This document shows positions 21,770 to 51,661 of a stretch of 64,000 nucleotides of DNA, piece after piece. The DNA is from a virus (Duplodnaviria > Caudoviricetes). Below the pieces are notes generated by a model. That model searched no databases. It was not told the origin of the DNA and worked only from the letters and a program-made list of their open reading frames with translations. Each line of letters begins with the position of its first letter. Position 1 is the first letter of the stretch. The translations under genes and the position numbers were made by a program. The DNA lies in IMG/VR virus record IMGVR_UViG_2534682207_000010, positions 1-64,000 of that record. One strand, given 5' to 3'.

Positions 21770-21797
21770 CAAAATTAACATTTAGCGGAGGTAAGAG

Positions 21798-21980
21798 ATG
21801 TTTTTATTGGAGAGAAAAGAAAGCTATGCAATGCCAAATATTTTAGGAAATTGCTCACAACCGGTATATACATATCGCTGGAAAGCGATAGCGAAAAGTG
21901 AGACAGAGCGGCCACTATTAGATATGATTAAGGATATGGATGTTACAACGCACAGAATAGTATCTAATCAACCGGATTAA
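21798..21980 (+). CDS. Cassette-like hypothetical protein
   Basis: ORF between motif copies; stop inside the motif. Confidence 0.6.
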   Translation: MFLLERKESYAMPNILGNCSQPVYTYRWKAIAKSETERPLLDMIKDMDVTTHRIVSNQPD

Positions 21981-21995
21981 AATTTGGAGGATAGG

Positions 21996-22688
21996 ATGGA
22001 TTTCGGATATTACAACATGGATTGTATGGACGGGATGGAGCAGTTTCCGGATAAGTATTTTGACCTTGCGATTGTTGATCCGCCCTACTTCTCTGGCCCA
22101 GAACGCAGGAGATATTACGGAAGGAAAGTAAGCCCCATAGGCGTGCAGCGTTTTTATGAGCCTTCAGAAAACTGGGATGTACCCGGAGATGAATATTTCA
22201 CGGAATTGGAACGGGTATCTAAGCATCAGATCGTATGGGGCTGTAATTATTTTAACTGGCATTTTCTGCCTGGCAGAATCATATGGGACAAATGCAATGG
22301 GAAAAGTAGTTTCTCAGATTGCGAGATTGCCTCCTGCACTTTACATGATTCAGTGCGCTTGTTCCGGTATATGTGGAATGGAATGATGCAGGGGAAATCC
22401 ATGGAAGAAGGATGGATACAGCAAGGCAATAAGAAACTCAATGAGAAGCGGATCCACCCAACGCAGAAACCGATTAACCTCTACCGCTGGTTGATTCAGA
22501 AGTATGTACAGCCTGGGTGGAAGGTAATAGACACGCACGTAGGAAGTGCAAGCAGCCTGATAGCATTTGAGGAGGCCAAACTACCATATGTGGGATTTGA
22601 GATTGATCCTAATCGGTATAAGTTGTCGAAACAGAGGCTTGAAGTGCATAGGGCGCAGTTAGCGTTGCATTATTTTGGGATATATTAA
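21996..22688 (+). CDS. N6/N4 DNA methyltransferase (beta class)
   Basis: IVDPPY, HPTQKP, DTHVGSAS motifs; RBS favours ATG 21996. Confidence 0.9.
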   Translation: MDFGYYNMDCMDGMEQFPDKYFDLAIVDPPYFSGPERRRYYGRKVSPIGVQRFYEPSENWDVPGDEYFTELERVSKHQIVWGCNYFNWHFLPGRIIWDKCNGKSSFSDCEIASCTLHDSVRLFRYMWNGMMQGKSMEEGWIQQGNKKLNEKRIHPTQKPINLYRWLIQKYVQPGWKVIDTHVGSASSLIAFEEAKLPYVGFEIDPNRYKLSKQRLEVHRAQLALHYFGIY

Positions 22689-22721
22689 CATTTTTCGGGA
22701 GAACTGAAGGAAGGAAAAGAT

Positions 22722-23006
22722 ATGAAGGTATCAAAAGAAATAGCAGAAAAGGCTGCTGAATACGAAGCGTTAAAAGAAAAATCAGATAAACTGTTCGAAG
22801 AATTGCAAAAGTGGTTTTCGGAGAATGCGGATATGGATGATTGCTATTTATATGGATTCGGGGTGGCACAGGAAGCAGACGGTGAGGAGCAGGAGGAAGG
22901 GGAATACTGTAACCAATACCAGCGCGGTGAAGATTCGTTCGATGGAACATATTATTGGGCGGTTGAGGATAGCACACAATATGTATGGGTTAATTATTCA
23001 ATTTAA
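22722..23006 (+). CDS. Cassette-like acidic hypothetical protein
   Basis: 94 aa; stop inside the motif. Confidence 0.75.
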   Translation: MKVSKEIAEKAAEYEALKEKSDKLFEELQKWFSENADMDDCYLYGFGVAQEADGEEQEEGEYCNQYQRGEDSFDGTYYWAVEDSTQYVWVNYSI

Positions 23007-23098
23007 GATTTGCTTAACATGAGCGTGTTTTACAGGTTTTACATGTTTTTGTCAACTAAATTAAAATTTTCCGGGAGAACCGGAGGAAGGAGAACATT

Positions 23099-23368
23099 AT
23101 GAATGATTTAACGTTAGTGTTACCGATAGCCATTGGTGGGAGAATATGGGATATTGATTTTCCAGAGCGTCCCGCCCTAGTTATGGGGTATCGAATTGGA
23201 AGAATGATGGGAGAAGATGATGCGGATTACGAGGAAAGCTATGAAGATGGAGAGTTATACATCCAATATACAATAGGGGGAGTAGAAGGTTCTTCGCCTG
23301 TGTCAAGTATAGGAGAATCCCTCTTTCTGACAAAGGATGAATTGATACAGGCTGTTTCACAAAACTGA
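23099..23368 (+). CDS. Cassette-like hypothetical protein
   Basis: 89 aa ending SQN*, stop inside the motif. Confidence 0.75.
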   Translation: MNDLTLVLPIAIGGRIWDIDFPERPALVMGYRIGRMMGEDDADYEESYEDGELYIQYTIGGVEGSSPVSSIGESLFLTKDELIQAVSQN

Positions 23369-23401
23369 CATTTAACTCATTAAGAGAGAAAGAGAAACGA
23401 T

Positions 23402-23539
23402 ATGGAAGAATTAATTAAGGCGTTACAAAGATTTGACAGTTTGGAGACAGTTATTGCCGAATTAAAAGCTTATGATAGACAAGACGGCATCGAAGAATTA
23501 GTTGAATATCTTAACGATGAAGCTGATTACTTACGCTAA
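23402..23539 (+). CDS. Cassette-like 45-aa protein
   Basis: Manual translation MEELIKALQRFDSLE.. Confidence 0.55.
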   Translation: MEELIKALQRFDSLETVIAELKAYDRQDGIEELVEYLNDEADYLR

Positions 23540-23580
23540 CGAATAGAAATTAACAATTTATACAAGAAAGGCAGTGCAGT

Positions 23581-23727
23581 ATGCGTGGTGATAAAAGCAG
23601 TGTATATATCCTTGAGGGTAAGGAACTGAATGCAGACGAACTTATTATGGAATTAGCGGAGCGAGGAAAAATATTCTTAAATTTTGACAAGGATATATCA
23701 AAATTTGGCGTAGAGGTAACTCTTTAA
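23581..23727 (+). CDS. Cassette-like 48-aa protein
   Basis: Manual translation MRGDKSSVYILEGKELNAD.. Confidence 0.55.
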   Translation: MRGDKSSVYILEGKELNADELIMELAERGKIFLNFDKDISKFGVEVTL

Positions 23728-23756
23728 AATTAGCATTTTCAGGAAGAAGGTATCAG

Positions 23757-23921
23757 ATGGATTTTTATAACTGTCCTTATGTTGTAGTTATTCCGTTTCG
23801 CAATAGAAATGAGTATGATGAGGATTACAGATGTGAGGTAACAGGGAAGTACTGTCAATGTTGCCAGTGTAAATTGACACCAGAAGAGTGTGAACAGTTG
23901 ATTCAAAAACAGAAAAATTAA
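23757..23921 (+). CDS. Cassette-like Cys-rich protein, paralogue of 14195-14383
   Basis: MDFYNCPYVVVIPFRNRNEYDEDYRCEVTGKYCQCCQCKLTPEECEQLIQKQKN; 36/48 identical to the 14.2 kb copy. Confidence 0.8.
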   Translation: MDFYNCPYVVVIPFRNRNEYDEDYRCEVTGKYCQCCQCKLTPEECEQLIQKQKN

Positions 23922-23944
23922 CATTTAAGGAAAGAAGGCGCGTT

Positions 23945-24229
23945 ATGAGATTAATTGATGCTGACGCTTTTAATAAGCAGGTGGCGGCTATGACGATAAA
24001 GGAAAATTACCCAGTAGAAAAAGCCAATGCAATGATGAAGTTGATTGATATGCAGCCAACGGCGTTAGATATGGCTGATATTCTGGCACAATTAGAAAAA
24101 CGTATTAATACACAGTTACAAATTATTACTGGACTGAATGACCCGGTGTATGAGTACGGTTTTACTAAAAGCTTGGAAGCATATCAACAATGCCGCTTGA
24201 TTTTGGAGGACGCTATTCACGAAAACTGA
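23945..24229 (+). CDS. Cassette-like MRLIDAD-family phage protein
   Basis: N-terminal MRLIDAD; ends HEN* in the motif. Confidence 0.75.
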   Translation: MRLIDADAFNKQVAAMTIKENYPVEKANAMMKLIDMQPTALDMADILAQLEKRINTQLQIITGLNDPVYEYGFTKSLEAYQQCRLILEDAIHEN

Positions 24230-24273
24230 CATTTTATGGAGGTGTAAGATGCTAACATTTAGGAGAAGAGAAG

Positions 24274-24426
24274 ATGAATCATAAAGTGGAAAATATTTCA
24301 AAGCTGATTGTAGGAGAAAGAAGTATAGAAACATCCGTGAGCAAAGTATCAAAAGAGACAGGTGCAGTGCTCACGGAGTTAGTAATGAAAAGCGATAAAG
24401 AAAAAATTACTTTTCAAGTACGGTAA
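24274..24426 (+). CDS. Small hypothetical protein
   Basis: Manual translation MNHKVENISKLIVG..; RBS aggag. Confidence 0.45.
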   Translation: MNHKVENISKLIVGERSIETSVSKVSKETGAVLTELVMKSDKEKITFQVR

Positions 24427-24649
24427 AGTTGCCGTTTCCGTCATCCTTTAGTTCACGGTTTGTTTTGATGATAATTTTATCAGCATATTCAATCATTTCA
24501 ATAACAAACCCATTGGGATAAGTGGAACGGTGGTGAATACAGTCGGCAGTATGCCGCAGAGTTTCCTGCTGAATCTCCGAAAAATTATTACAAAATCCTT
24601 TTGTATCAATATTATTTTTAGATCCAGCGGTAAATGTGTATTCATACAT
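24407..24649 (-). CDS. Antisense moron, 80 aa
   Basis: MYEYTFTAGSKNNIDT..; strong RBS aaaggagg on the minus strand. Confidence 0.65.
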   Translation of the reverse strand: MYEYTFTAGSKNNIDTKGFCNNFSEIQQETLRHTADCIHHRSTYPNGFVIEMIEYADKIIIKTNRELKDDGNGNFTVLEK

Positions 24650-24819
24650 ATAACCAGCCTCCTTTCTATATGTACTCAGCTCCGGGCAGGGAGCCTGTAC
24701 CCAAAGTATAGGGGCAAAAACATTAAAAATCAATAAGGAGAAAACTGAAATAAGCCAAAAAGCGATAAGGTTAATCGCAAAAAACAGAACAAATAGAACA
24801 ATGGAAGGAGCGTATACAT

Positions 24820-25005
24820 ATGAAGGTTGGAGAGTATTTGAAAGAGCAGCGGGAACAGCAGGGCTTGTCCAATGCAAAGCTGGCGAAAGCAGCTGGAGTG
24901 TCAAAGCGCTCCCTTATCTATTGGGAGCAGGGTAGGGATATGAGCGTGGAGGTGGCCGATAAAGTACTTAAGGCCCTGGGCGCGACCTGTAAAATAGGTG
25001 CATGA
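24820..25005 (+). CDS. XRE-family HTH protein
   Basis: LSNAKLAKAAGVSKRSLIYWEQG. Confidence 0.85.
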   Translation: MKVGEYLKEQREQQGLSNAKLAKAAGVSKRSLIYWEQGRDMSVEVADKVLKALGATCKIGA

Positions 25006-25039
25006 TTGTGCACCAAAACTGATATTTTGGAGGATGCGA

Positions 25040-25207
25040 ATGTATCAATATTATATATCGGCGGCAACCAATGTTGGTTATGTATCTTTTGTGTATAAAC
25101 TTGATTTTAAGATGGATTCGGTAGAAAACATAAAAAAGGTATATGATATGTTGGAAGAAAGCGGAATAACAAATCCGACTATATTGTTCTTTAATCAATT
25201 AAACTGA
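25040..25207 (+). CDS. Cassette-like hypothetical protein
   Basis: MYQYYISAA..QLN*; motif then ggagg upstream. Confidence 0.6.
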   Translation: MYQYYISAATNVGYVSFVYKLDFKMDSVENIKKVYDMLEESGITNPTILFFNQLN

Positions 25208-25231
25208 AAATTAATATTTGGAGGATGGAAC

Positions 25232-25474
25232 ATGATTGAAAGGAAAAGGGAAATCTCTATCGTAAAAGACCGTGAGTTTTTGTCAGCGGAAAATGACGCA
25301 TACAATGCCCTCGTTGCTAAAGGGTATACTCCGCAAGGTGCCGATACGGGATTTAAGACAGTCTGCGTGATGCTGTTTGAGCATCCAGAATATGCAGAGA
25401 ATCCAGCCAAACGAGGCAAATGTAAAGTATATCATTTTAAAAATTGGCAAGAAGCCTTAGCGCAACTAAACTGA
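25232..25474 (+). CDS. Cassette-like hypothetical protein
   Basis: 80 aa ending QLN* in the motif. Confidence 0.7.
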   Translation: MIERKREISIVKDREFLSAENDAYNALVAKGYTPQGADTGFKTVCVMLFEHPEYAENPAKRGKCKVYHFKNWQEALAQLN

Positions 25475-25495
25475 CATTTACAGGAGGAATAAGCC

Positions 25496-25849
25496 ATGGA
25501 TAAAAAGACGATAGTATTTGATTTTGATGGAGTGATACATAGTTACACAAGCGGGTGGCAGGGTATATCAGTTATACCAGACCCGGTTGTGCCAGAGATA
25601 CAGGCAGCAATCAATTACTTACGCATGGAAGGGTACGAGGTAATTGTGGTATCTACCAGATGTGCAAGGCCAGAGGGTATGGGAGCGGTTAGGCGCTATT
25701 TGAGAGATAACCATATTGTGGTTGATGATGTAGTTGCACACAAGCCGCCTGCAATCTGCTATATAGACGATAGAGCAATATGCTTTGACGGAGACGCATT
25801 AGGACTAATTGGGAAGATTAGGGCTTTTAAACCCTGGAATCAAAATTAA
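25496..25849 (+). CDS. HAD-superfamily phosphatase-like protein
   Basis: VFDFDGV, VSTR, YIDDRA motifs. Confidence 0.8.
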   Translation: MDKKTIVFDFDGVIHSYTSGWQGISVIPDPVVPEIQAAINYLRMEGYEVIVVSTRCARPEGMGAVRRYLRDNHIVVDDVVAHKPPAICYIDDRAICFDGDALGLIGKIRAFKPWNQN

Positions 25850-25879
25850 TATTTCCGAGAGAACCGGAGGAAGGAAAAG

Positions 25880-26113
25880 ATGAAAGTTGTCAAAAAGAAG
25901 ATACTGCCTGAATACTTTCGGGTGGTGCGAGCAAGAAAGAAGAATTTTGAAATCCGGGTGGATGAAGATAATGTCCAGGTTGGAGATTTGCTTATTTTGG
26001 AAGAGTGGGATGGGTTTTATACGGGAAACAGTGTAAGGCGGCATGTTAAATATGTTTTGCGGGACGCCCCATCACTTGGTTTAAAGCCAGGGTATTGTAT
26101 CATAAGTTGGTAA
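25880..26113 (+). CDS. ASCH/DUF3850-domain protein
   Basis: KKILPEYF..KKNFEIR..VGDLLILEEW..GYCIISW. Confidence 0.8.
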   Translation: MKVVKKKILPEYFRVVRARKKNFEIRVDEDNVQVGDLLILEEWDGFYTGNSVRRHVKYVLRDAPSLGLKPGYCIISW

Positions 26114-26150
26114 AGTTAAGATTTGGCCGCTGAGTGCCAGAAAGGAAGAT

Positions 26151-26420
26151 ATGATGAAATTAGTAGATACTGTAAACGGAATGAACAGTGCAGATTACAA
26201 AGAGAGATTTATTGCAGAGTATCAGCAGCTAGTTATCAGATACAGAGGGCTGACAAGTATGCTCTATAAATGGGACAGGGGAATAGACCTTGGGTTTGTT
26301 CCTACTTGCCCTAGAAGCACATACAATATGCAGGTAAAAGCAATGACAGATTATATCGCGGTCCTTGAAGCCAGAGCAGTGATGGAAGGTATTGAACTGG
26401 ATTTGAGTACTGTTCTTTGA
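26151..26420 (+). CDS. crAss001_48-like helical hairpin protein
   Basis: YKERFIAEYQQL..R..L..ML..PTCP..Q..AM..Y..LEARA..EGI pattern, recognised from memory. Confidence 0.7.
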   Translation: MMKLVDTVNGMNSADYKERFIAEYQQLVIRYRGLTSMLYKWDRGIDLGFVPTCPRSTYNMQVKAMTDYIAVLEARAVMEGIELDLSTVL

Positions 26421-26491
26421 GACTAAGCTGATATCAGCAGTATTAACATTTGGAGGGATATTTGAATCCGCACTTGAGGGAGGAAAGGAAC

Positions 26492-26737
26492 ATGAAACCA
26501 GAAGAGGCTATTGATATTATTAAGCGTATGTACAAAGGAACACCTACAACGGAACAGTATGAAGCCTTAGAAGCAGCGTATGAGGCACTGGGAAAGCAGA
26601 TACCCAAAAAAACTCCTAGAATTTATGGGGCAATGGGTGAAAAATATGAATGTCCTGAATGTGGTAGCGGGTTGAGAGATACAGATTTGTTTACAGGGCA
26701 TTGTAAATGGTGTGGTCAGGCAATTAAACAATATTAA
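26492..26737 (+). CDS. Zn-ribbon phage protein
   Basis: ALGKQIPKK..CPECG..CKWCGQ. Confidence 0.75.
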   Translation: MKPEEAIDIIKRMYKGTPTTEQYEALEAAYEALGKQIPKKTPRIYGAMGEKYECPECGSGLRDTDLFTGHCKWCGQAIKQY

Positions 26738-26755
26738 TATTTTGCGGAGGTGTGT

Positions 26756-26908
26756 ATGGATAAAGATTTTTCAAAAGGGTTTATGTATGATGTTGCAGAT
26801 TTGTTGGAATATTGTGCAGAAAATAATACAGATAATGTCGATTTGATTTTTACGTTTGGGGATAAGGAACTGAATGTAAATGTCACATTTTCAATTAAAC
26901 AAAACTGA
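26756..26908 (+). CDS. Cassette-like 50-aa protein
   Basis: Manual translation MDKDFSKGFMYDVADLLEYC..KQN*, stop in the motif. Confidence 0.65.
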   Translation: MDKDFSKGFMYDVADLLEYCAENNTDNVDLIFTFGDKELNVNVTFSIKQN

Positions 26909-28172: not shown

Positions 28173-29195
28173 ATGGCAGAACAGGTAAGTATGGATGATG
28201 TTGTCAGGCGTGTTATGGATAATATTGTAAATGTCATCGAAGAACAGGAACGACTTAATCAAGTAAAACAGATACTCAACATGTGTTTATCGAAATTTCA
28301 GTTTTTTACAGAAGAAACAGCGTTGTCTAATGAAATAGATAGGTCAGTGGAATACCTTAATGCCTATTTGCTCCAGATGAAGCTGGACGGATGTACAGAT
28401 GGTAGTATTAACAATTATAAATGTAATCTAAAAAATATGATGACATATATAAATAAAAATGTAACGGAGATTACATACCAGGATTTAAAGGGGTACCTTG
28501 CATATGGGAAACTTGTGCGCAAATGGAAAGATAGAACTTATAATAGTAAACTTATATCGATACGTAGTTTCTTCTCCTTTTTGTACACAGAAGATTTATT
28601 GCCAGAAAATCCCGCAAAAAAATTGAAGGAAACGAAAGTGGAATACAAGATAGGGGCAACGTTGCAGCCTGAACAACGTGAAATGGTTAGATGTGCCTGC
28701 GAAAATGAATTTGAACTTGCGTTATGTGATATGCTGTATGTTACGGGAGTTCGTGTGTCAGAATTATGTGGTATGGATATTTCCGATGTAGATTTTCAGC
28801 GAAAAACGGCAATAGTTTATGGTAAAGGAAGAAAAGAGCGTCAAGTATATCTTAATGGACAGGTTGCTCTTCATTTATGGAGGTATCTGGACGGTAGAAA
28901 TGATGATAATCCAGCTTTATTTGTGTCTCCCAATAGGCCAAAGAGCCGCATTTCTGGTCAGACAGTTCGTAATATTTTACAGTGTATAAAGGCAAGAGAT
29001 GCAGAATTGGAAGGTGTGAAAGTTACTCCCCATGTGTTCCGGCGTACTGTTGGAACAGATATGATTAACAAAGGTGCTCCAGCTGAAATTGTAAAGGAAG
29101 CACTTGGACATGTTAAGATTGATACAACATTAAAATGCTATGCAGCAATCAGCAGAGAGACAGTACAACAGGCACATGCAAGATTTGTTGGATAA
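28173..29195 (+). CDS. Tyrosine recombinase (XerD/Rci-like), distinct from the prophage integrase
   Basis: SAM-like core-binding domain plus TGVRVSE (R), VYGKG (K), TPHVFRR (HxxR), LGH, and Y; full catalytic set. Confidence 0.95.
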   Translation: MAEQVSMDDVVRRVMDNIVNVIEEQERLNQVKQILNMCLSKFQFFTEETALSNEIDRSVEYLNAYLLQMKLDGCTDGSINNYKCNLKNMMTYINKNVTEITYQDLKGYLAYGKLVRKWKDRTYNSKLISIRSFFSFLYTEDLLPENPAKKLKETKVEYKIGATLQPEQREMVRCACENEFELALCDMLYVTGVRVSELCGMDISDVDFQRKTAIVYGKGRKERQVYLNGQVALHLWRYLDGRNDDNPALFVSPNRPKSRISGQTVRNILQCIKARDAELEGVKVTPHVFRRTVGTDMINKGAPAEIVKEALGHVKIDTTLKCYAAISRETVQQAHARFVG

Positions 29196-46260: not shown

Positions 46261-46341
46261 GTGAAAAATTATGTCGATTTAAACCAGTGCCTAGTGAGCC
46301 TTCGACCTTTGCGAAATAAACAGAGGAAGGAGGCTTTTCTT

Positions 46342-49101
46342 ATGAATTTCCAGGAACACCGGGAATTAATCAAAAAATTAAAGCGGCAGATTACAGAGCC
46401 GCCATCTTTGGACATTTTGCAACTTCTTCTGTCCGAACTTCAATATACGATGCAGGATAACCCGGATTTGGGTGCAGATGAACGAAAATATGTGTTTTCT
46501 TACTCTGGGTTTATCAAACGATGGTCGTTACAGCGACTACAGCAGACGCTTGACCCTCAATGGGACAAGTTATACTGGGATACGATGCTATTTGAAGCCA
46601 GAAACCGTGTGGTGGACAGCTACTTGATTTATCTGGAGAAGAATCGTGACCCAGAAGATAAGTTTTATGAGCCACGCCGCAAGCAATTCTTGAAAATGGG
46701 TTTCACGCAAGCGTTACAGGATTTGATAGATGATGAAATAGATATTTTGAGCATATCTACCGTACCTGGGAGCGGTAAAGAGCAACCTTTGTATAGTAAA
46801 GTCCTTACGCCTAATGGATTTATTCAAATGGGAGAAGTGACTGTTGGTACAGTTGTCCTTACTCCGTGTGGAGATACTGCACGGGTTACAGGAGTCTTTC
46901 CACAAGGCATAAAAGATGTGTATAGAGTATATTTCAACGATGGAACACATGCTGATTGTGGTCTGGAGCATTTATGGAAAGTCCAGAACAGAAATGATAG
47001 GAGAACTGGAAAAGAGCGAGTTATTCCTTTAAAAGATATTCTTAACTCTGTCAGAATCGGTACAGATAGTAGAAAAAATTACTCCATCAACTATGTTGAA
47101 AAGCTAAACTTTGAATTATGCCAAAAAGACATTGACCCGTATGTATTGGGAGTGTTGCTTGGAGATGGGGCATTAGAAAAAGGAGCAAGAATTACTAATG
47201 CAGAAACAGATATTATCGAAAAGGTAAGTTCCAGGTTGAAATCAGGTGAAAGATTATCCTGTCAGAGTACCAAAGGTGTTGATTACGGTATCGTAAATAC
47301 ACATAGAGTTACAGATGAAAAAGGTCATTTGGTAAAAAGCAATACTGTAGCAGCGTTGGAGAATTATGGACTTTTGGGAAAGAAAAGTATTGAAAAATTT
47401 ATTCCAGAAGAATACATGAAAGGGTCTTTTGAAGAACGGATAGAGCTTTTAAGAGGAATTTTAGATGCGGATGGATATGTAGCAAGTGGATATATCGAAT
47501 ATAGCACATCATCAAAACAACTGGGTGAAGATGTCGTATCTTTAGTACGTTCTCTTGGAGGGTATGCAACGGTTAGGAAAAAATGCCCTAGCTATACATA
47601 CAATGGAGAAAAGAAATATGGCAAATATTCATATCGGATTGTAATCCAATTTCCGAAAGATATTGTGCCGGTATCTTCTGAGAAACACTTGAAAAAGTTG
47701 CATGTTAAAAGAAAAAATCTAAAGAAATACATTGAGAAAATTGAATATATCGGGAAATTTCCGTGCCAGTGTATAATGATTGACCACAAAGACCACCTGT
47801 ATATTACAGATGATTATATTGTCACACATAATACCACGCTCGGAGAAATGTTTATTTCTGGGTTCATGGGATGGTTCCCGGATTTGTGTAACCTGTTTTC
47901 ATCCCACAGTGGTCATGTTACCCGGATGGTTTATCAGGTTGTTTGCAATATCATTGGAATTGGTTTGAAGCCTGGACAGATACCGGAATACACATGGAGA
48001 GAAATATTTCCAGATGTTGAGGTAGAAAGCAACAATGCAAACGAACAGGAAATCAATCTTGGAAAGTTTAAGCCATTTAAGACACTGACCTGCAGAGCGT
48101 TGGGAGCTTCACAGACTGGTGTTACCCGATGTGAAGGTATTCTGTATTGTGATGATTTGTGCTCCGGTATCGAAATGGCTCTTTCCAAAATTCGTCTGGA
48201 TAAGCTTTGGACAATGTATAGTACCGACTTAAAAACCCGTAAAAAGAAGGGGAAGAGAGGTAGAAAATGTAAAGAACTTCACATTGCTACCAGATGGTCT
48301 GTATGGGATGTAATTGGGCGTATAAAAACTATCTATCAAAGTAATAAGCGCTGCCGTTTCATTTCAGTGCCGGATATTGACCCGGCAACAGGGGAAAGCA
48401 ATTTTGATTATGATTATGGCGTTGGATTCGATGTGGAGTATTTTGAAGATATCGAAAAGTCGCTGGATGATATTACATATAAGTGTTTATACAAGAATGA
48501 ACCCGTAGAACGCGAGGGAATCCTTTATAATCCAGATATGCTGCGGCGATATTATGGAGAGCTGCCGCCAAAAGAGCCAGATGCTATATGGGCGTTCTGC
48601 GATACAAAAGATACGGGAACGGACTATAACTGTCTAGGGGTGTTTTATCAGTATGGAGAAGATTATTATCTTCATGATGTGGTATTCCAGAGTATTGACC
48701 CGTACCTATTGGATGATTTGAATGCGGACTGTCTGGTGCGGAATGATGTGCAAATCGCGGTATTTGAGAGCAACAAAGAGGGTAGCAGAACCGGCGATAA
48801 GGTTCAGGAAAAAGTAAAAGAAAAGGGCGGACGAACCAGCATTGAAAAGAGATTCACAACCACCAATAAGGAAACAAAGATTATTGTCAATAGTCCGTGG
48901 GTAATTCAGCATGTGCTATTTAAGCACCCGGATTGCTATGAGGTTAAGTCTGATTATGGACAATTCATGTCATGGCTTTGTGCGTATAGCCAGTTGGCAA
49001 AGAATCCGCACGATGACGCACCCGATATGGTAGCCATGTTAGCTGTTTACAGAAGCGGCGGAGGTGTAGCTTCAGCAAAGCCTATGTCACGACCATTCTG
49101 A
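46342..49101 (+). CDS. terL: Terminase large subunit containing an intein
   Basis: Walker A GSGK|TT split by the intein; YCDDL, ATRW, CDTKDTGTD, PHDDAPD nuclease motifs; RBS aaggagg favours ATG 46342. Confidence 0.92.
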   Translation: MNFQEHRELIKKLKRQITEPPSLDILQLLLSELQYTMQDNPDLGADERKYVFSYSGFIKRWSLQRLQQTLDPQWDKLYWDTMLFEARNRVVDSYLIYLEKNRDPEDKFYEPRRKQFLKMGFTQALQDLIDDEIDILSISTVPGSGKEQPLYSKVLTPNGFIQMGEVTVGTVVLTPCGDTARVTGVFPQGIKDVYRVYFNDGTHADCGLEHLWKVQNRNDRRTGKERVIPLKDILNSVRIGTDSRKNYSINYVEKLNFELCQKDIDPYVLGVLLGDGALEKGARITNAETDIIEKVSSRLKSGERLSCQSTKGVDYGIVNTHRVTDEKGHLVKSNTVAALENYGLLGKKSIEKFIPEEYMKGSFEERIELLRGILDADGYVASGYIEYSTSSKQLGEDVVSLVRSLGGYATVRKKCPSYTYNGEKKYGKYSYRIVIQFPKDIVPVSSEKHLKKLHVKRKNLKKYIEKIEYIGKFPCQCIMIDHKDHLYITDDYIVTHNTTLGEMFISGFMGWFPDLCNLFSSHSGHVTRMVYQVVCNIIGIGLKPGQIPEYTWREIFPDVEVESNNANEQEINLGKFKPFKTLTCRALGASQTGVTRCEGILYCDDLCSGIEMALSKIRLDKLWTMYSTDLKTRKKKGKRGRKCKELHIATRWSVWDVIGRIKTIYQSNKRCRFISVPDIDPATGESNFDYDYGVGFDVEYFEDIEKSLDDITYKCLYKNEPVEREGILYNPDMLRRYYGELPPKEPDAIWAFCDTKDTGTDYNCLGVFYQYGEDYYLHDVVFQSIDPYLLDDLNADCLVRNDVQIAVFESNKEGSRTGDKVQEKVKEKGGRTSIEKRFTTTNKETKIIVNSPWVIQHVLFKHPDCYEVKSDYGQFMSWLCAYSQLAKNPHDDAPDMVAMLAVYRSGGGVASAKPMSRPF
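46780..47832 (+). mobile_element. Class-3-type intein with LAGLIDADG homing endonuclease (351 aa)
   Basis: Starts EQPLYSKVLTP, block B DCGLEHLW, block F PCQCIMI, ends VTHN followed by T; LGVLLGDG and LRGILDADG motifs. Confidence 0.9.
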
Positions 49102-49120: not shown

Positions 49121-49576
49121 ATGCAAGCTTTGACAAGAGAGTATCTGGCAACTTATGTGTACCTGGAATCTGAAATCAAAAGAATTCGGGGCAGAATAAA
49201 ATATTATGAAAATCATCCGGTTCAGCAACAGTATGGCATCGTAAAAGGCTCTATGAAGCAGTTTCCATTTACTGAATGTCATTTTGTGGTTTCTGGTCCA
49301 ACTATAAAGTCGAACTTAGAACGGGAAAAAATGGTACGCCAGTTGATTATCGACCTCAAAGGTAATGAACAACTTTTTGAAGATATGAAATTAGATATTG
49401 AGACTTTTTTGGAAACACTACCTGCTGAGGATATTGAAATTAAGCATATTTTAGGATTAAAGTATGTAGAACGCAAATCCGATGGAGAAATAGCGAAGAA
49501 ATTGAATTATAGCAGGAGGACCATAGGACTTAAGATTGATAAGTTTCTGAATGCGATTCAAAAAGAAAAGAAGTAG
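49121..49576 (+). CDS. RinA/ArpU-like late transcriptional regulator
   Basis: C-terminal sigma-70 region-4-like HTH (ILGLKYVERKSDGEIAKKLNYSRRTI). Confidence 0.7.
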   Translation: MQALTREYLATYVYLESEIKRIRGRIKYYENHPVQQQYGIVKGSMKQFPFTECHFVVSGPTIKSNLEREKMVRQLIIDLKGNEQLFEDMKLDIETFLETLPAEDIEIKHILGLKYVERKSDGEIAKKLNYSRRTIGLKIDKFLNAIQKEKK

Positions 49577-50025
49577 CAATTTAACAGGTAAAACGAATAC
49601 CAGTGATTTTAACAATTTGAAAAATTCAATTGTCATGGTCAATGTCACTGGATTTGCAATTGGTATTGACGGTAATAATGTTATAATCCAGTGGTTGACC
49701 GGAGTAAATAGAGAATTTGGCTATGCACTTAATATTAGCACCACGGATGGTACAATGCAGTTCTTCTATCGTGAGAATGGTGCGTGGAAACCATCCTGGA
49801 CCAAATAATCATTTTATCCATATTACGGAATCTGTTCCAGTTTTTCTGTCTCTGGATGCATATGTTATTCCATCGTTAGAGAATGTAAGTAAACGTGACC
49901 ATTCTTCGTTAAAAATAAATTCCAGTGTTATCCCTTGGAGGTTTTCGTTTACAAAGATTATCATTTTCTGACAACGGGTGAACGTAAATGACCCAGTACC
50001 TAATTTACTAACTAAATTGCTACTT
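49571..50025. other. Invertible-looking segment: 13-bp inverted repeats around two head-to-head SSNL cassettes
   Basis: AAGTAGCAATTTA at 49571-49583 and its reverse complement at 50013-50025; + frame 49572-49808 (78 aa), - frame 50024-49809 (71 aa); stop codons abut. Confidence 0.75.
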
Positions 50026-50212
50026 TATTCATCTTTGCCACAAATGCCACTTAGGATATGGTAAAATGGTATTAGTAAAAAGTATGCGAGACATCCAAAT
50101 TAAATTAAGGATGTTTGATATAACTATTAATATTGAAATAAATGCAAGCCGTTGAAGGATATAGAAAATCCTCCAACGGCCTTACTTTTTTGACAGAAGA
50201 GGGTAAAAGCTG

Positions 50213-51661
50213 ATGAACAGTAATAGCTTTATTGATTTATGCCATGGACATTTTGGTAGAAAAATTGCATATACGAATGTCGATAGAATTACCAAAGAAA
50301 ATGTTGTTGGTGTCGTTGGTAAGGCTATTTCAGTTCTGAATTACAATCGACCGGCGATACGATATCTTTACGATTACTATAAGGGTGACCAGCCGATTCA
50401 TTACCGTGAAAAGAAAGTGCGGCCTGACATCAATAACAAGACTTGTGAGAATCACGCTCTTGAAATTGTCCGCTTTAGCACCAGTCAGACATATGGGGAG
50501 CCGATACAGTATGTCAGCCGAAAAACAGATAAAAAAATCAATGATGCCGTGGATAAACTAAATGATTACATGAAGGACGCTCATCGGCAGGCCAGAGATA
50601 TCAAGCTTGGAAATTTTCAGAGTGCCGTTGGAACTGCCTACAAGGTAACGCTTAAAGGAAAGTCAACAGATATTGTTCCGTTCCGAATCCATATTCCGAA
50701 TCCGCTGAATACGATTGTTGTGTATTCGGCCAAAGATGATTCAGATATACTTTCCATTCAGGTATTGAAGGATGAAAAAGACGAACAGTATTATCAGTGC
50801 TATTCGGATGATTTATATTTCATCATCAAGGGCGGTAGAGTAATTGATTCTGGAATAAATGGTCTTGGCGGTATTCCGATTGTGGAGTATCCGAATAATC
50901 CGGACAGGCTCTCCGACATTGAAATTGTGATTACGCTTCTCGACCAGATTAACAAAATGCAGTCTGATAGGATGAATGGCATTGAGCAGTTTATTCAGGC
51001 ATTTATGCTTTTTAAGAACTGTGAGATTGATGAGAAGAAGTTTTTACAGATGTGTGACCTTGGTGCTGTGGAGGTTAAAGATTCCGGTCAGGGAATGCAA
51101 TCAGATGTAAAACTCATGACTGCTGAATTAAATCAGGAACAGACACAGGTAGCCAAGGATGATGTGTACCGACAAGTACTTGTCGTTGAGGGTATGCCAG
51201 ACCGACAGCAGAATACCGGCGGAGATACCGGACAGGCGGTTTACCTGCGGAATGGTTGGGATTTTGCGGAACAGCGGGCAAAACTGGATGAACCATTTAC
51301 CATTGAGGCAGAGAAAAAACATGCCAGAATTGTTTTGAATATCATTAAGCAAACAACAAATGATGTTCCTCTGACAGTAAGAGACTTCGATGTGAAGATT
51401 ACTCGAAATTCTACTGATAATATGCTGGTTAAGGCACAGGCGCTGGATTATTTACTGAAAAATAAGATTCATCCGCTGATTGCAATTACTGTATGCGGGC
51501 TGTTTGGTGACCCGGAAAAGGTTTGGACGCAGAGTAAGCCGTACATGGATACCATTTTCAAGACGCAGGAGCAACTTGATATTGAAGCTGAAAAAGAACG
51601 CACATTGGAACTTTTGAAAACAAAGCAAACTAAAACAGTTAAAACAGGAAGAGCCGAGTAG
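50213..51661 (+). CDS. Portal protein (SPP1 type)
   Basis: YYKGDQPI, NHALEIV, GGIPIVEYPNN, LLDQIN..SDRMN, SGQA-like TGQA motifs. Confidence 0.93.
   Translation: MNSNSFIDLCHGHFGRKIAYTNVDRITKENVVGVVGKAISVLNYNRPAIRYLYDYYKGDQPIHYREKKVRPDINNKTCENHALEIVRFSTSQTYGEPIQYVSRKTDKKINDAVDKLNDYMKDAHRQARDIKLGNFQSAVGTAYKVTLKGKSTDIVPFRIHIPNPLNTIVVYSAKDDSDILSIQVLKDEKDEQYYQCYSDDLYFIIKGGRVIDSGINGLGGIPIVEYPNNPDRLSDIEIVITLLDQINKMQSDRMNGIEQFIQAFMLFKNCEIDEKKFLQMCDLGAVEVKDSGQGMQSDVKLMTAELNQEQTQVAKDDVYRQVLVVEGMPDRQQNTGGDTGQAVYLRNGWDFAEQRAKLDEPFTIEAEKKHARIVLNIIKQTTNDVPLTVRDFDVKITRNSTDNMLVKAQALDYLLKNKIHPLIAITVCGLFGDPEKVWTQSKPYMDTIFKTQEQLDIEAEKERTLELLKTKQTKTVKTGRAE

Follow-up and report, generated by a model that had tools for sequence, protein, structure and literature searches.

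Fibre-tip inversion is a classic means of widening phage host range, and the described cases that we found are compact clusters beside an invertase. In Mu, P1, e14 and p15B, the fibre C terminus is switched by site-specific inversion with small serine invertases (Gin, Cin, Pin and Min); the invertase gene lies beside the segment, the sites are 26–34 bp long, a Fis-dependent enhancer is used and each cassette comes with a fibre-assembly gene. In the Mycoplasma vpma/Xer1 and vsa/HvsR surface-antigen switches, silent gene copies are moved by an Xer-like tyrosine recombinase to one expression site by inversion at short sites. Tyrosine-recombinase shufflons (R64 Rci/sfx and Rin/rix) are marked by a constant N-terminal part joined in frame to alternative C-terminal cassettes, inversion at sites, a dedicated invertase beside the cassettes and one contiguous cluster. 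The Rin shufflon of Bifidobacterium prophages comprises a phage receptor-binding protein, a predicted tyrosine recombinase invertase and 11-bp asymmetric rix repeats, and its prophage and virion genomes were found to differ by inversions (Mavrich et al. 2018, PMC6109161). In a BV01-like Phocaeicola phage, fibre cassettes lie between ~10-bp directional motifs, and all configurations were found in reads (PMC13596623, preprint 2026). Tail fibres are enriched among predicted programmed inversions. A literature search returned no account of silent fibre cassettes at separate loci, nor of such a system in Lachnospiraceae phages.

Here we analysed a 76,440-base IMG/VR provirus record (G000), whose bases 1–64,000 form the window, the whole stretch of DNA examined initially; positions beyond it are given with the prefix G000. 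The locus of interest is a 455-bp unit of two cassettes. Like the Gin, Cin, Pin and Min switches, it has convergent cassettes and inverts at a constant/variable junction; unlike them, its sites are 13 bp long, no small serine invertase lies adjacent, and its units consist of two cassettes of 60–125 amino acids (aa) only, with no fibre-assembly gene as partner. It resembles vpma and vsa in having an Xer-like tyrosine recombinase as the mover, here a candidate enzyme only; those systems move whole genes behind a promoter within one bacterial cluster, whereas here an in-frame tip would be moved, in a phage, between loci bracketing the structural operon. Among the shufflon features, in-frame joining to alternative cassettes is present and inversion is seen as differences between genomes (contigs L054, L027 and L031). 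A dedicated invertase beside the cassettes is absent, as is one contiguous cluster, the units lying at 49571–50025, at G000 74399–74919 and, decayed, at G000 70012–70104. Rin shares the constant N-terminal part and several unrelated C-terminal cassettes behind short repeats (PMC6109161), yet its cassettes form a single unbroken cluster that ends in the recombinase gene, whereas here two to three loci lie up to 24 kb apart and the candidate recombinase is 20 kb away. The Rin site, TTCCCTAACCC, is unrelated to the core found here, AAGTAGCAATTTA, and the hosts here are Lachnospiraceae. The BV01-like system likewise concerns a gut-phage tail-fibre gene with several cassettes, but it occupies a single 1.7-kb window flanked by its own recombinase, and no silent remote loci are described for it (PMC13596623). 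Thus, the system works like a shufflon, and what is new is its dispersed arrangement, with neither an adjacent invertase nor a contiguous cluster. We judge it probable that the 455-bp unit serves a dispersed tail-fibre shufflon as an archive, silent and invertible, of two cassettes whose tips can be exchanged with the fibre gene.

Results

A 13-bp inverted repeat encloses two convergent cassettes

The core AAGTAGCAATTTA forms a perfect 13-bp inverted repeat at 49571–49583 (plus strand; left crossover site S1) and 50013–50025 (minus strand; right crossover site S2), and complementarity of the two arms reaches 34 nt at 74%. Exactly four copies occur in the 76.4-kb record, against a chance expectation of ~0.002 for one given 13-mer. 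All four are read in the same S-S-N-L frame and they make up two inverted pairs, both of which enclose convergent cassettes; within the 64-kb window, even the exact 10-mer TAGCAATTTA is present at the two arms only. Both frames of the 455-bp unit open with AGT AGC AAT TTA (SSNL). Cassette A (49572–49808, plus strand) encodes 78 aa, SSNL followed by 74 residues that end in SWTK, with its TAA at 49806–49808. Cassette B (49809–50024, minus strand) encodes 71 aa, SSNL followed by 67 residues that end in WIK, with its stop at 49809–49811 (TCA on the plus strand). The two stops abut at 49808/49809 without a gap. Among 21 units from relatives the zero gap is not universal, measuring 0–9 nt in most and 37–40 nt in two.

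The gene to the left, a 151-aa sigma-70 region-4/RinA-like late regulator (49121–49576, plus strand), ends in S1, its TAG lying in a different frame from that of the cassette, while S2 is preceded by a TAA in the cassette frame. We reproduced all of these features as the initial annotation had described them: the repeat and its 455 bp with coordinates, lengths and ends of both SSNL frames, the abutting stops, the RinA-like gene ending inside the repeat, the minus-frame stop just outside it, and a sole upstream plus-frame ATG (49551) with no clear ribosome-binding site. Pfam and PHROG scans of the A and B peptides gave no match.

The core lies at the constant–variable junction of a predicted tail fibre

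The second pair of cores lies beyond the right end of the window, at G000 74399–74411 (plus strand; S3) and 74907–74919 (minus strand). Its plus copy falls inside a 275-aa predicted tail-fibre gene (G000 73791–74618), 24.4 kb downstream of the unit, and is the AGYAATTTA site in an (N/S)-S-N-L frame that the initial annotation had expected in a tail gene to the right. The fibre reads ...EAANNL-SSNL-AAANAK... and then runs on for 68 residues, here termed cassette C. A frame of 99 aa, cassette D, starts at the minus copy and has a TAA before it; the stops of C and D abut with zero gap, in the same layout as at the 455-bp unit.

This fibre gene stands at the end of the tail module. Before it come the genes for the tape measure, a DUF6711-type protein and a Peptidase_S74-type fibre, then two small genes; in relatives, XkdX, holin and endolysin genes lie beyond it. 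An alignment of nine homologues showed conservation through GANLT..N.L-(N/S)-S-N-L and unrelated sequence beyond; therefore, the site is the junction between a constant fibre body and a variable tip. Searches of the 275-aa fibre against Pfam and NCBIfam gave no match, and those against PHROG gave weak matches only, including ‘virion structural protein’ at E = 1.9e-5. An AlphaFold2 model built from the nine-sequence alignment (mean pLDDT 41.6, pTM 0.23) was unusable for a fold search. One relative (L032, 4001–5242) encodes a 414-aa fibre with N-S-D-L at the junction, no crossover site and a longer fixed tip, which by these features is a predicted non-switching version of the same gene.

Relatives of A and B are C-terminal tips of tail-module proteins

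Cassette A has a close counterpart in Enterocloster phage PMBT24 (90% nucleotide and 91% protein identity), where it forms the in-frame C terminus of a 169-aa protein whose gene comes straight after that of the tape measure. This protein consists of a constant 95 aa, the junction I-Y-S-N-L and the A-like tip. A convergent 107-aa frame abuts the tip and also opens at Y-S-N-L, and both cassettes are bounded by TATATAGCAATTT inverted repeats. The PMBT24 paper makes no mention of this cassette arrangement and names one XerD-like recombinase, ORF122. Members of the cassette A family also lie in the archive loci of G002, L054, L056 and L068.

A search of cassette B against longer proteins returned 47 matches at 80–99% identity, and in every one of these that was examined B is the C terminus after xSNL. 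The N-terminal regions of the proteins ending in B are of at least eight unrelated kinds, 90 to 716 residues long, and the proteins include the fibre family found here (P0002, 275 aa, on 24 or more contigs), whose B-tipped members lie in canonical tail modules by XkdX, holin and endolysin. Thus, where stand-alone homologues with their own starts would have spoken against tail-fibre tips, both peptides match the C termini of tail-module proteins. The in-frame tips in PMBT24 and in the fibre family bear out the earlier proposal that A and B are C-terminal switching modules of a tail-fibre shufflon.

Units are inverted and exchanged among genomes

In metagenomic contig L054, whose flanks are collinear with the window at ~93%, the unit at the same locus is 99.1% identical but inverted, giving both orientations of the A–B pair. 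At the level of assembled sequence, this comparison demonstrates local inversion of the unit. Two IMG/VR records (L007 and L009) and two metagenomic contigs (L061 and L063) have the same flanks around unrelated cassette pairs; their similarity to the window breaks at the core and, for L007 and L009, exactly at S1. The 455 bp had initially been described as tips stored or mis-integrated at a secondary site. Mis-integration is not supported: these relatives keep the locus at the same junction with other cassette pairs, and equivalent silent loci lie before the portal or the tail-fibre module in phages whose portals are only 77% identical. Storage fits the data, since the archive is conserved and the same tips are found at the working fibre gene of related phages.

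The clearest such case is provided by L084/L085, in which the tail-fibre module is 97.8% identical to that of this genome over 4.3 kb. There, B tips the fibre (98.2% nucleotide identity), while the C–D pair, expressed in this genome, occupies a silent locus immediately before the module, in inverted orientation (93.9%). We grouped 42 cassettes from 21 units into 25 families, five of which (those of A and C, and those beginning ANKNIIG, ASKI and ADKLL) are each found in both settings, at an archive arm and, in a different genome, at the fibre locus. The cassette C family occupies the plus arm in this genome and the minus arm in L027 and L031. On these comparisons of contigs, we have high confidence that exchange between archive and expression loci occurs among close relatives. 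The initial annotation had listed a single orientation, the lack of a site in any tail gene and stand-alone homologues as observations against it; both orientations, a site in the fibre gene and C-terminal homologues were found.

Contig graphs from three metagenomes branch at 49583 and 50012, where they join other known cassettes, the alternative joins leading to the C and ANKNIIG families. In pig- and mouse-gut metagenomes, the 488-base unit contig had a depth of 9–10, against 12–26 for its flanks. Neither the inverted A–B form nor strand-change joints appeared in the three metagenomes, which were searched as contigs that drop rare variants. All read evidence consists of assembled contigs, and the differences in orientation and tip are differences between genomes, which could have arisen over evolutionary time between strains.

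Single cassettes also re-assort, B being partnered by A, by a C-like cassette or by a family-2 cassette, and this is not explained by recombination at SSNL sites alone. The usual meeting point of two cassettes is a near-palindrome, AAATAA/TCATTT (window 49803–49814; also L041, L034, L046, L054, L056, L061 and L079). After a cassette ending in ...SIVF-TGA, the seven non-coding bases TAAATAA rebuild its left half. The motif is therefore not merely an effect of Lys–stop coding, because non-coding bases recreate it, and the junction may be a second crossover site.

Archives lie at the starts of structural modules

The unit is flanked on the left by the large terminase, which carries a LAGLIDADG intein, and on the right by an SPP1-type portal. 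The regulator between terminase and unit matches phrog_36 (transcriptional regulator, E = 2.4e-12), and its NCBIfam sigma-70 matches fall below the cut-off. The portal gene (50213–51661, plus strand; PF05133, E = 1.9e-71) is the first gene of the 24 kb that lie between S2 and the fibre site S3. As a separate observation, the terminase (46261–49101) is 946 aa long with its homing-endonuclease intein (PF14528 and PF05204), which is missing in relatives (the L019 terminase has 581 aa) or has another insert in its position (L046).

Immediately inside S2 lies a late-promoter-like element of 42 bases (TCTTTGCCACAAATGCCAC..GGATATGGTAAAATGGTATT; 50032–50073, plus strand). The element, also written TCTTTGCCACAAATGCCAC...TAAAATGGTATT or TTGCCACAAATGCCAC..TATGnTAAAAT, has exactly two copies in the record; the second, at G000 70111–70152 (L003 12112–12153), is upstream of the tail-fibre module as the first is upstream of the portal. 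After each copy come a hairpin and then a gene start with its ribosome-binding sequence. The first hairpin, G+C-rich with T-runs on both sides, lies at 50146–50182, between the element and the portal start codon, and an analogous one follows the second copy. This layout resembles the lambda late promoter–terminator. We infer that the repeated element is a putative late promoter served by the adjacent 151-aa protein, whose sigma-like sequence makes it the likely regulator of this element. Versions that have diverged come after the archive arms in L072, L039 and L019 and, in L014, before the tail-fibre module.

The archive was always found just upstream of the repeated element. Three separate cassette loci are present in G002, L079, L084 and L072, and in the first three of these the third unit lies directly upstream of the second promoter-like copy. 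In this genome the third locus consists of degenerate arms (TAAATTGCG, AAAGTAGCAATATG and CTAATTTCTACATT; G000 70012–70104, L003 12013–12105), adjoined by an IS200/IS605-type transposase gene (G000 69486–69956, L003 11487–11957). In L072 the order is regulator, unit, tail-fibre module with a fibre unit, 4.5 kb of other genes, unit and portal. In G004 and G005 the unit sits just before the portal despite a module order unlike that of this genome. The archives are therefore tied to the starts of two structural transcription units.

These data bear on the possibility that the cassette pairs are an evolutionary by-product, scattered by rare past recombination or horizontal exchange and unused as an archive today. 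In its favour, we saw in contigs no switching within a population and a single A–B orientation in three metagenomes, the third locus has decayed beside an IS200-like transposase, and the archive is absent from L010 and from a contig of run X14. This explanation accounts poorly for four perfect cores with both archived frames open, for a unit more similar than its flanks between this genome and L054 (99.1% versus ~93%), for a position kept across phages with 77% portal identity, and for near-isogenic phages that differ exactly in which unit occupies which locus. We therefore regard a disused by-product as unlikely, and have high confidence that tail-fibre tips are stored, silent, in these 455 bp and that this store is conserved.

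The order of structural modules itself differs between G004, G005 and L072 on one side and G000, G001 and G002 on the other, the tail-fibre module preceding the portal-to-tape-measure module in one lineage and following it in the other; cassette units lie at module boundaries in both orders, and shufflon sites may have mediated the rearrangement between lineages. Separately, a foreign sequence beginning CACACGCAGAATGCATG is inserted exactly at the core in L008 (4467–4534), where the contig ends, and the same sequence lies inside a cassette, after the plus arm, in L051. This sequence is probably a small mobile element for which cassette loci are either targets or tolerated sites.

The archived cassettes are predicted to be silent in place

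We next considered whether the cassettes could be expressed where they lie. The only upstream ATG in the plus frame, at 49551, would open an 85-aa reading frame (MRFKKKR-SSNL...), and local inversion could then toggle the C terminus of a small protein made in place. This ATG is kept in the close relatives L007–L009, but it is conserved because it lies inside the coding sequence of the regulator, and no Shine–Dalgarno-like sequence precedes it. An in-frame stop stands directly before the plus arm in the distant archives of L019 (LLE*NSNL) and L072 (ESN*NSNL), a TAA precedes every minus arm in G000-type phages, and in all larger homologues found, a long constant region stands before the cassette. 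Small proteins made in place are thus very unlikely. Since a stop precedes the minus arm and the plus arm has only an accidental ATG, the cassettes appear silent in place, and neither A nor B is predicted to be translated there. Least credible of all is a programmed frameshift that would fuse the cassettes to the regulator and give it a switchable C terminus: the regulator does stop within the core after an A-rich stretch (CAAAAAGAAAAGAAG), but a +1 or −2 shift with no known signal would be needed, the archives of L072, G004 and G005 lie before the portal with no adjoining regulator gene, and 221-aa proteins with cassette B have an unrelated, fibre-like N terminus rather than a regulator.

An Xer-like tyrosine recombinase is the candidate invertase

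The record encodes one tyrosine recombinase, an Xer-like protein of 340 aa (28173–29195, plus strand; PF00589, E = 2.4e-32) whose matches to Xer families fall below the cut-off. Its gene lies ~20 kb upstream of the regulator gene in G000 and G001, and an open frame of 351–358 aa from the same family was found in all five related records searched. The only PF00239 match in the record is a large serine recombinase at the left edge (1–1368), which is probably the integrase. There is no small serine invertase in the record, and no recombinase gene within several kb of the archive or fibre locus, nor next to any cassette locus. PMBT24, a virulent phage, has no serine recombinase and a single Xer-like tyrosine recombinase (26% identical). 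As PMBT24 carries no serine enzyme and the Xer-like enzyme is conserved, the tyrosine recombinase is the best candidate, and we propose with moderate confidence that it acts at the cores.

We also observed that the motif AAAYTRAYATTT occurs ten times, always on the plus strand, against 0.27 expected (window 21772–26902 and 33880). They lie within an array of small genes, situated upstream of the gene for the tyrosine recombinase. Read as its reverse complement, AAATTGCTACTT, the SSNL core agrees with this motif at 10 of 12 positions.

Possible routes between archive and fibre gene

S2 and S3 are mutually inverted, and a crossover between them would flip the portal-to-fibre segment and fuse the constant part of the fibre in frame to B. 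With the promoter-like element immediately inside S2, the flipped operon would keep its own promoter. By the same logic, relatives with a unit before the tail-fibre module could flip a self-promoted 4.3-kb module. If tips do travel in this way, the phage would exchange the tip by which it recognizes its host through inversion of one third of the genome. The flipped 24-kb arrangement was absent from nine contigs with both archive flanks and from contigs spanning the fibre locus. Regulator and fibre genes converging on one unit, as the flip would place them, were found in none of 16 regulator and 9 fibre loci from IMG/VR, and likewise in none of 11 informative metagenomic contigs, 10 genome loci and 11 contigs encoding cassette-B fibres. 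Such a flip, if it occurs, is rare or transient, and we give the inversion of the whole 24.4-kb late operon as a tentative and rather doubtful route. Units would also be swapped, with no lasting flip, by two long inversions in succession or by a double crossover that involves two copies of the genome. Our confidence in any one route between the loci is low.

In contig G006 (L035/L036), the fibre gene, one unit and the portal-side flank are joined in direct order. The left part of the contig matches G001 at 99.98% identity, while the portal side is nearer to this genome (98.4% versus 95.6%). Only three explanations fit the direct order: an excised circle, a tandem copy, or an assembly path that runs through a unit shared by both loci. 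We rejected the contig as proof of exchange, as its two sides have different closest relatives and it is probably chimeric; the most that it can show is that a single sample held one unit in both contexts. We also rejected a diversity-generating retroelement (DGR) and homologous gene conversion, given that the breaks coincide with the 13-bp core and that the archive and the fibre gene have no flanking homology.

Discussion

We favour a mechanism in which the 13-bp core, encoding S-S-N-L as the last conserved stretch of the 275-aa fibre before its variable C-terminal tip, would serve as the point at which a site-specific recombinase, likely of the Xer-like tyrosine type, exchanges DNA. Inversion between the two arms of a unit would swap which cassette faces each arm. 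Recombination between the archive unit and the fibre locus would join an archived tip, in frame, to the constant part of the fibre. The new tip would alter the receptor-binding end and presumably the host surface recognized.

In place of a compact cluster beside an invertase, the spare tips here form silent pairs that are spread over the genome, beside the promoter-like starts of structural modules. Gene callers, and host-range predictions that read the fibre gene alone, miss tips stored elsewhere, and assemblies break or mis-join at these crossover sites. Lachnospiraceae are abundant gut bacteria with few cultured phages. PMBT24, a cultured virulent phage that grows on Enterocloster bolteae, carries the same switch, which makes it directly testable. 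The finding of one tip on at least eight fibre backbones, joined each time via xSNL, points to a shared exchange standard among Lachnospiraceae phages.
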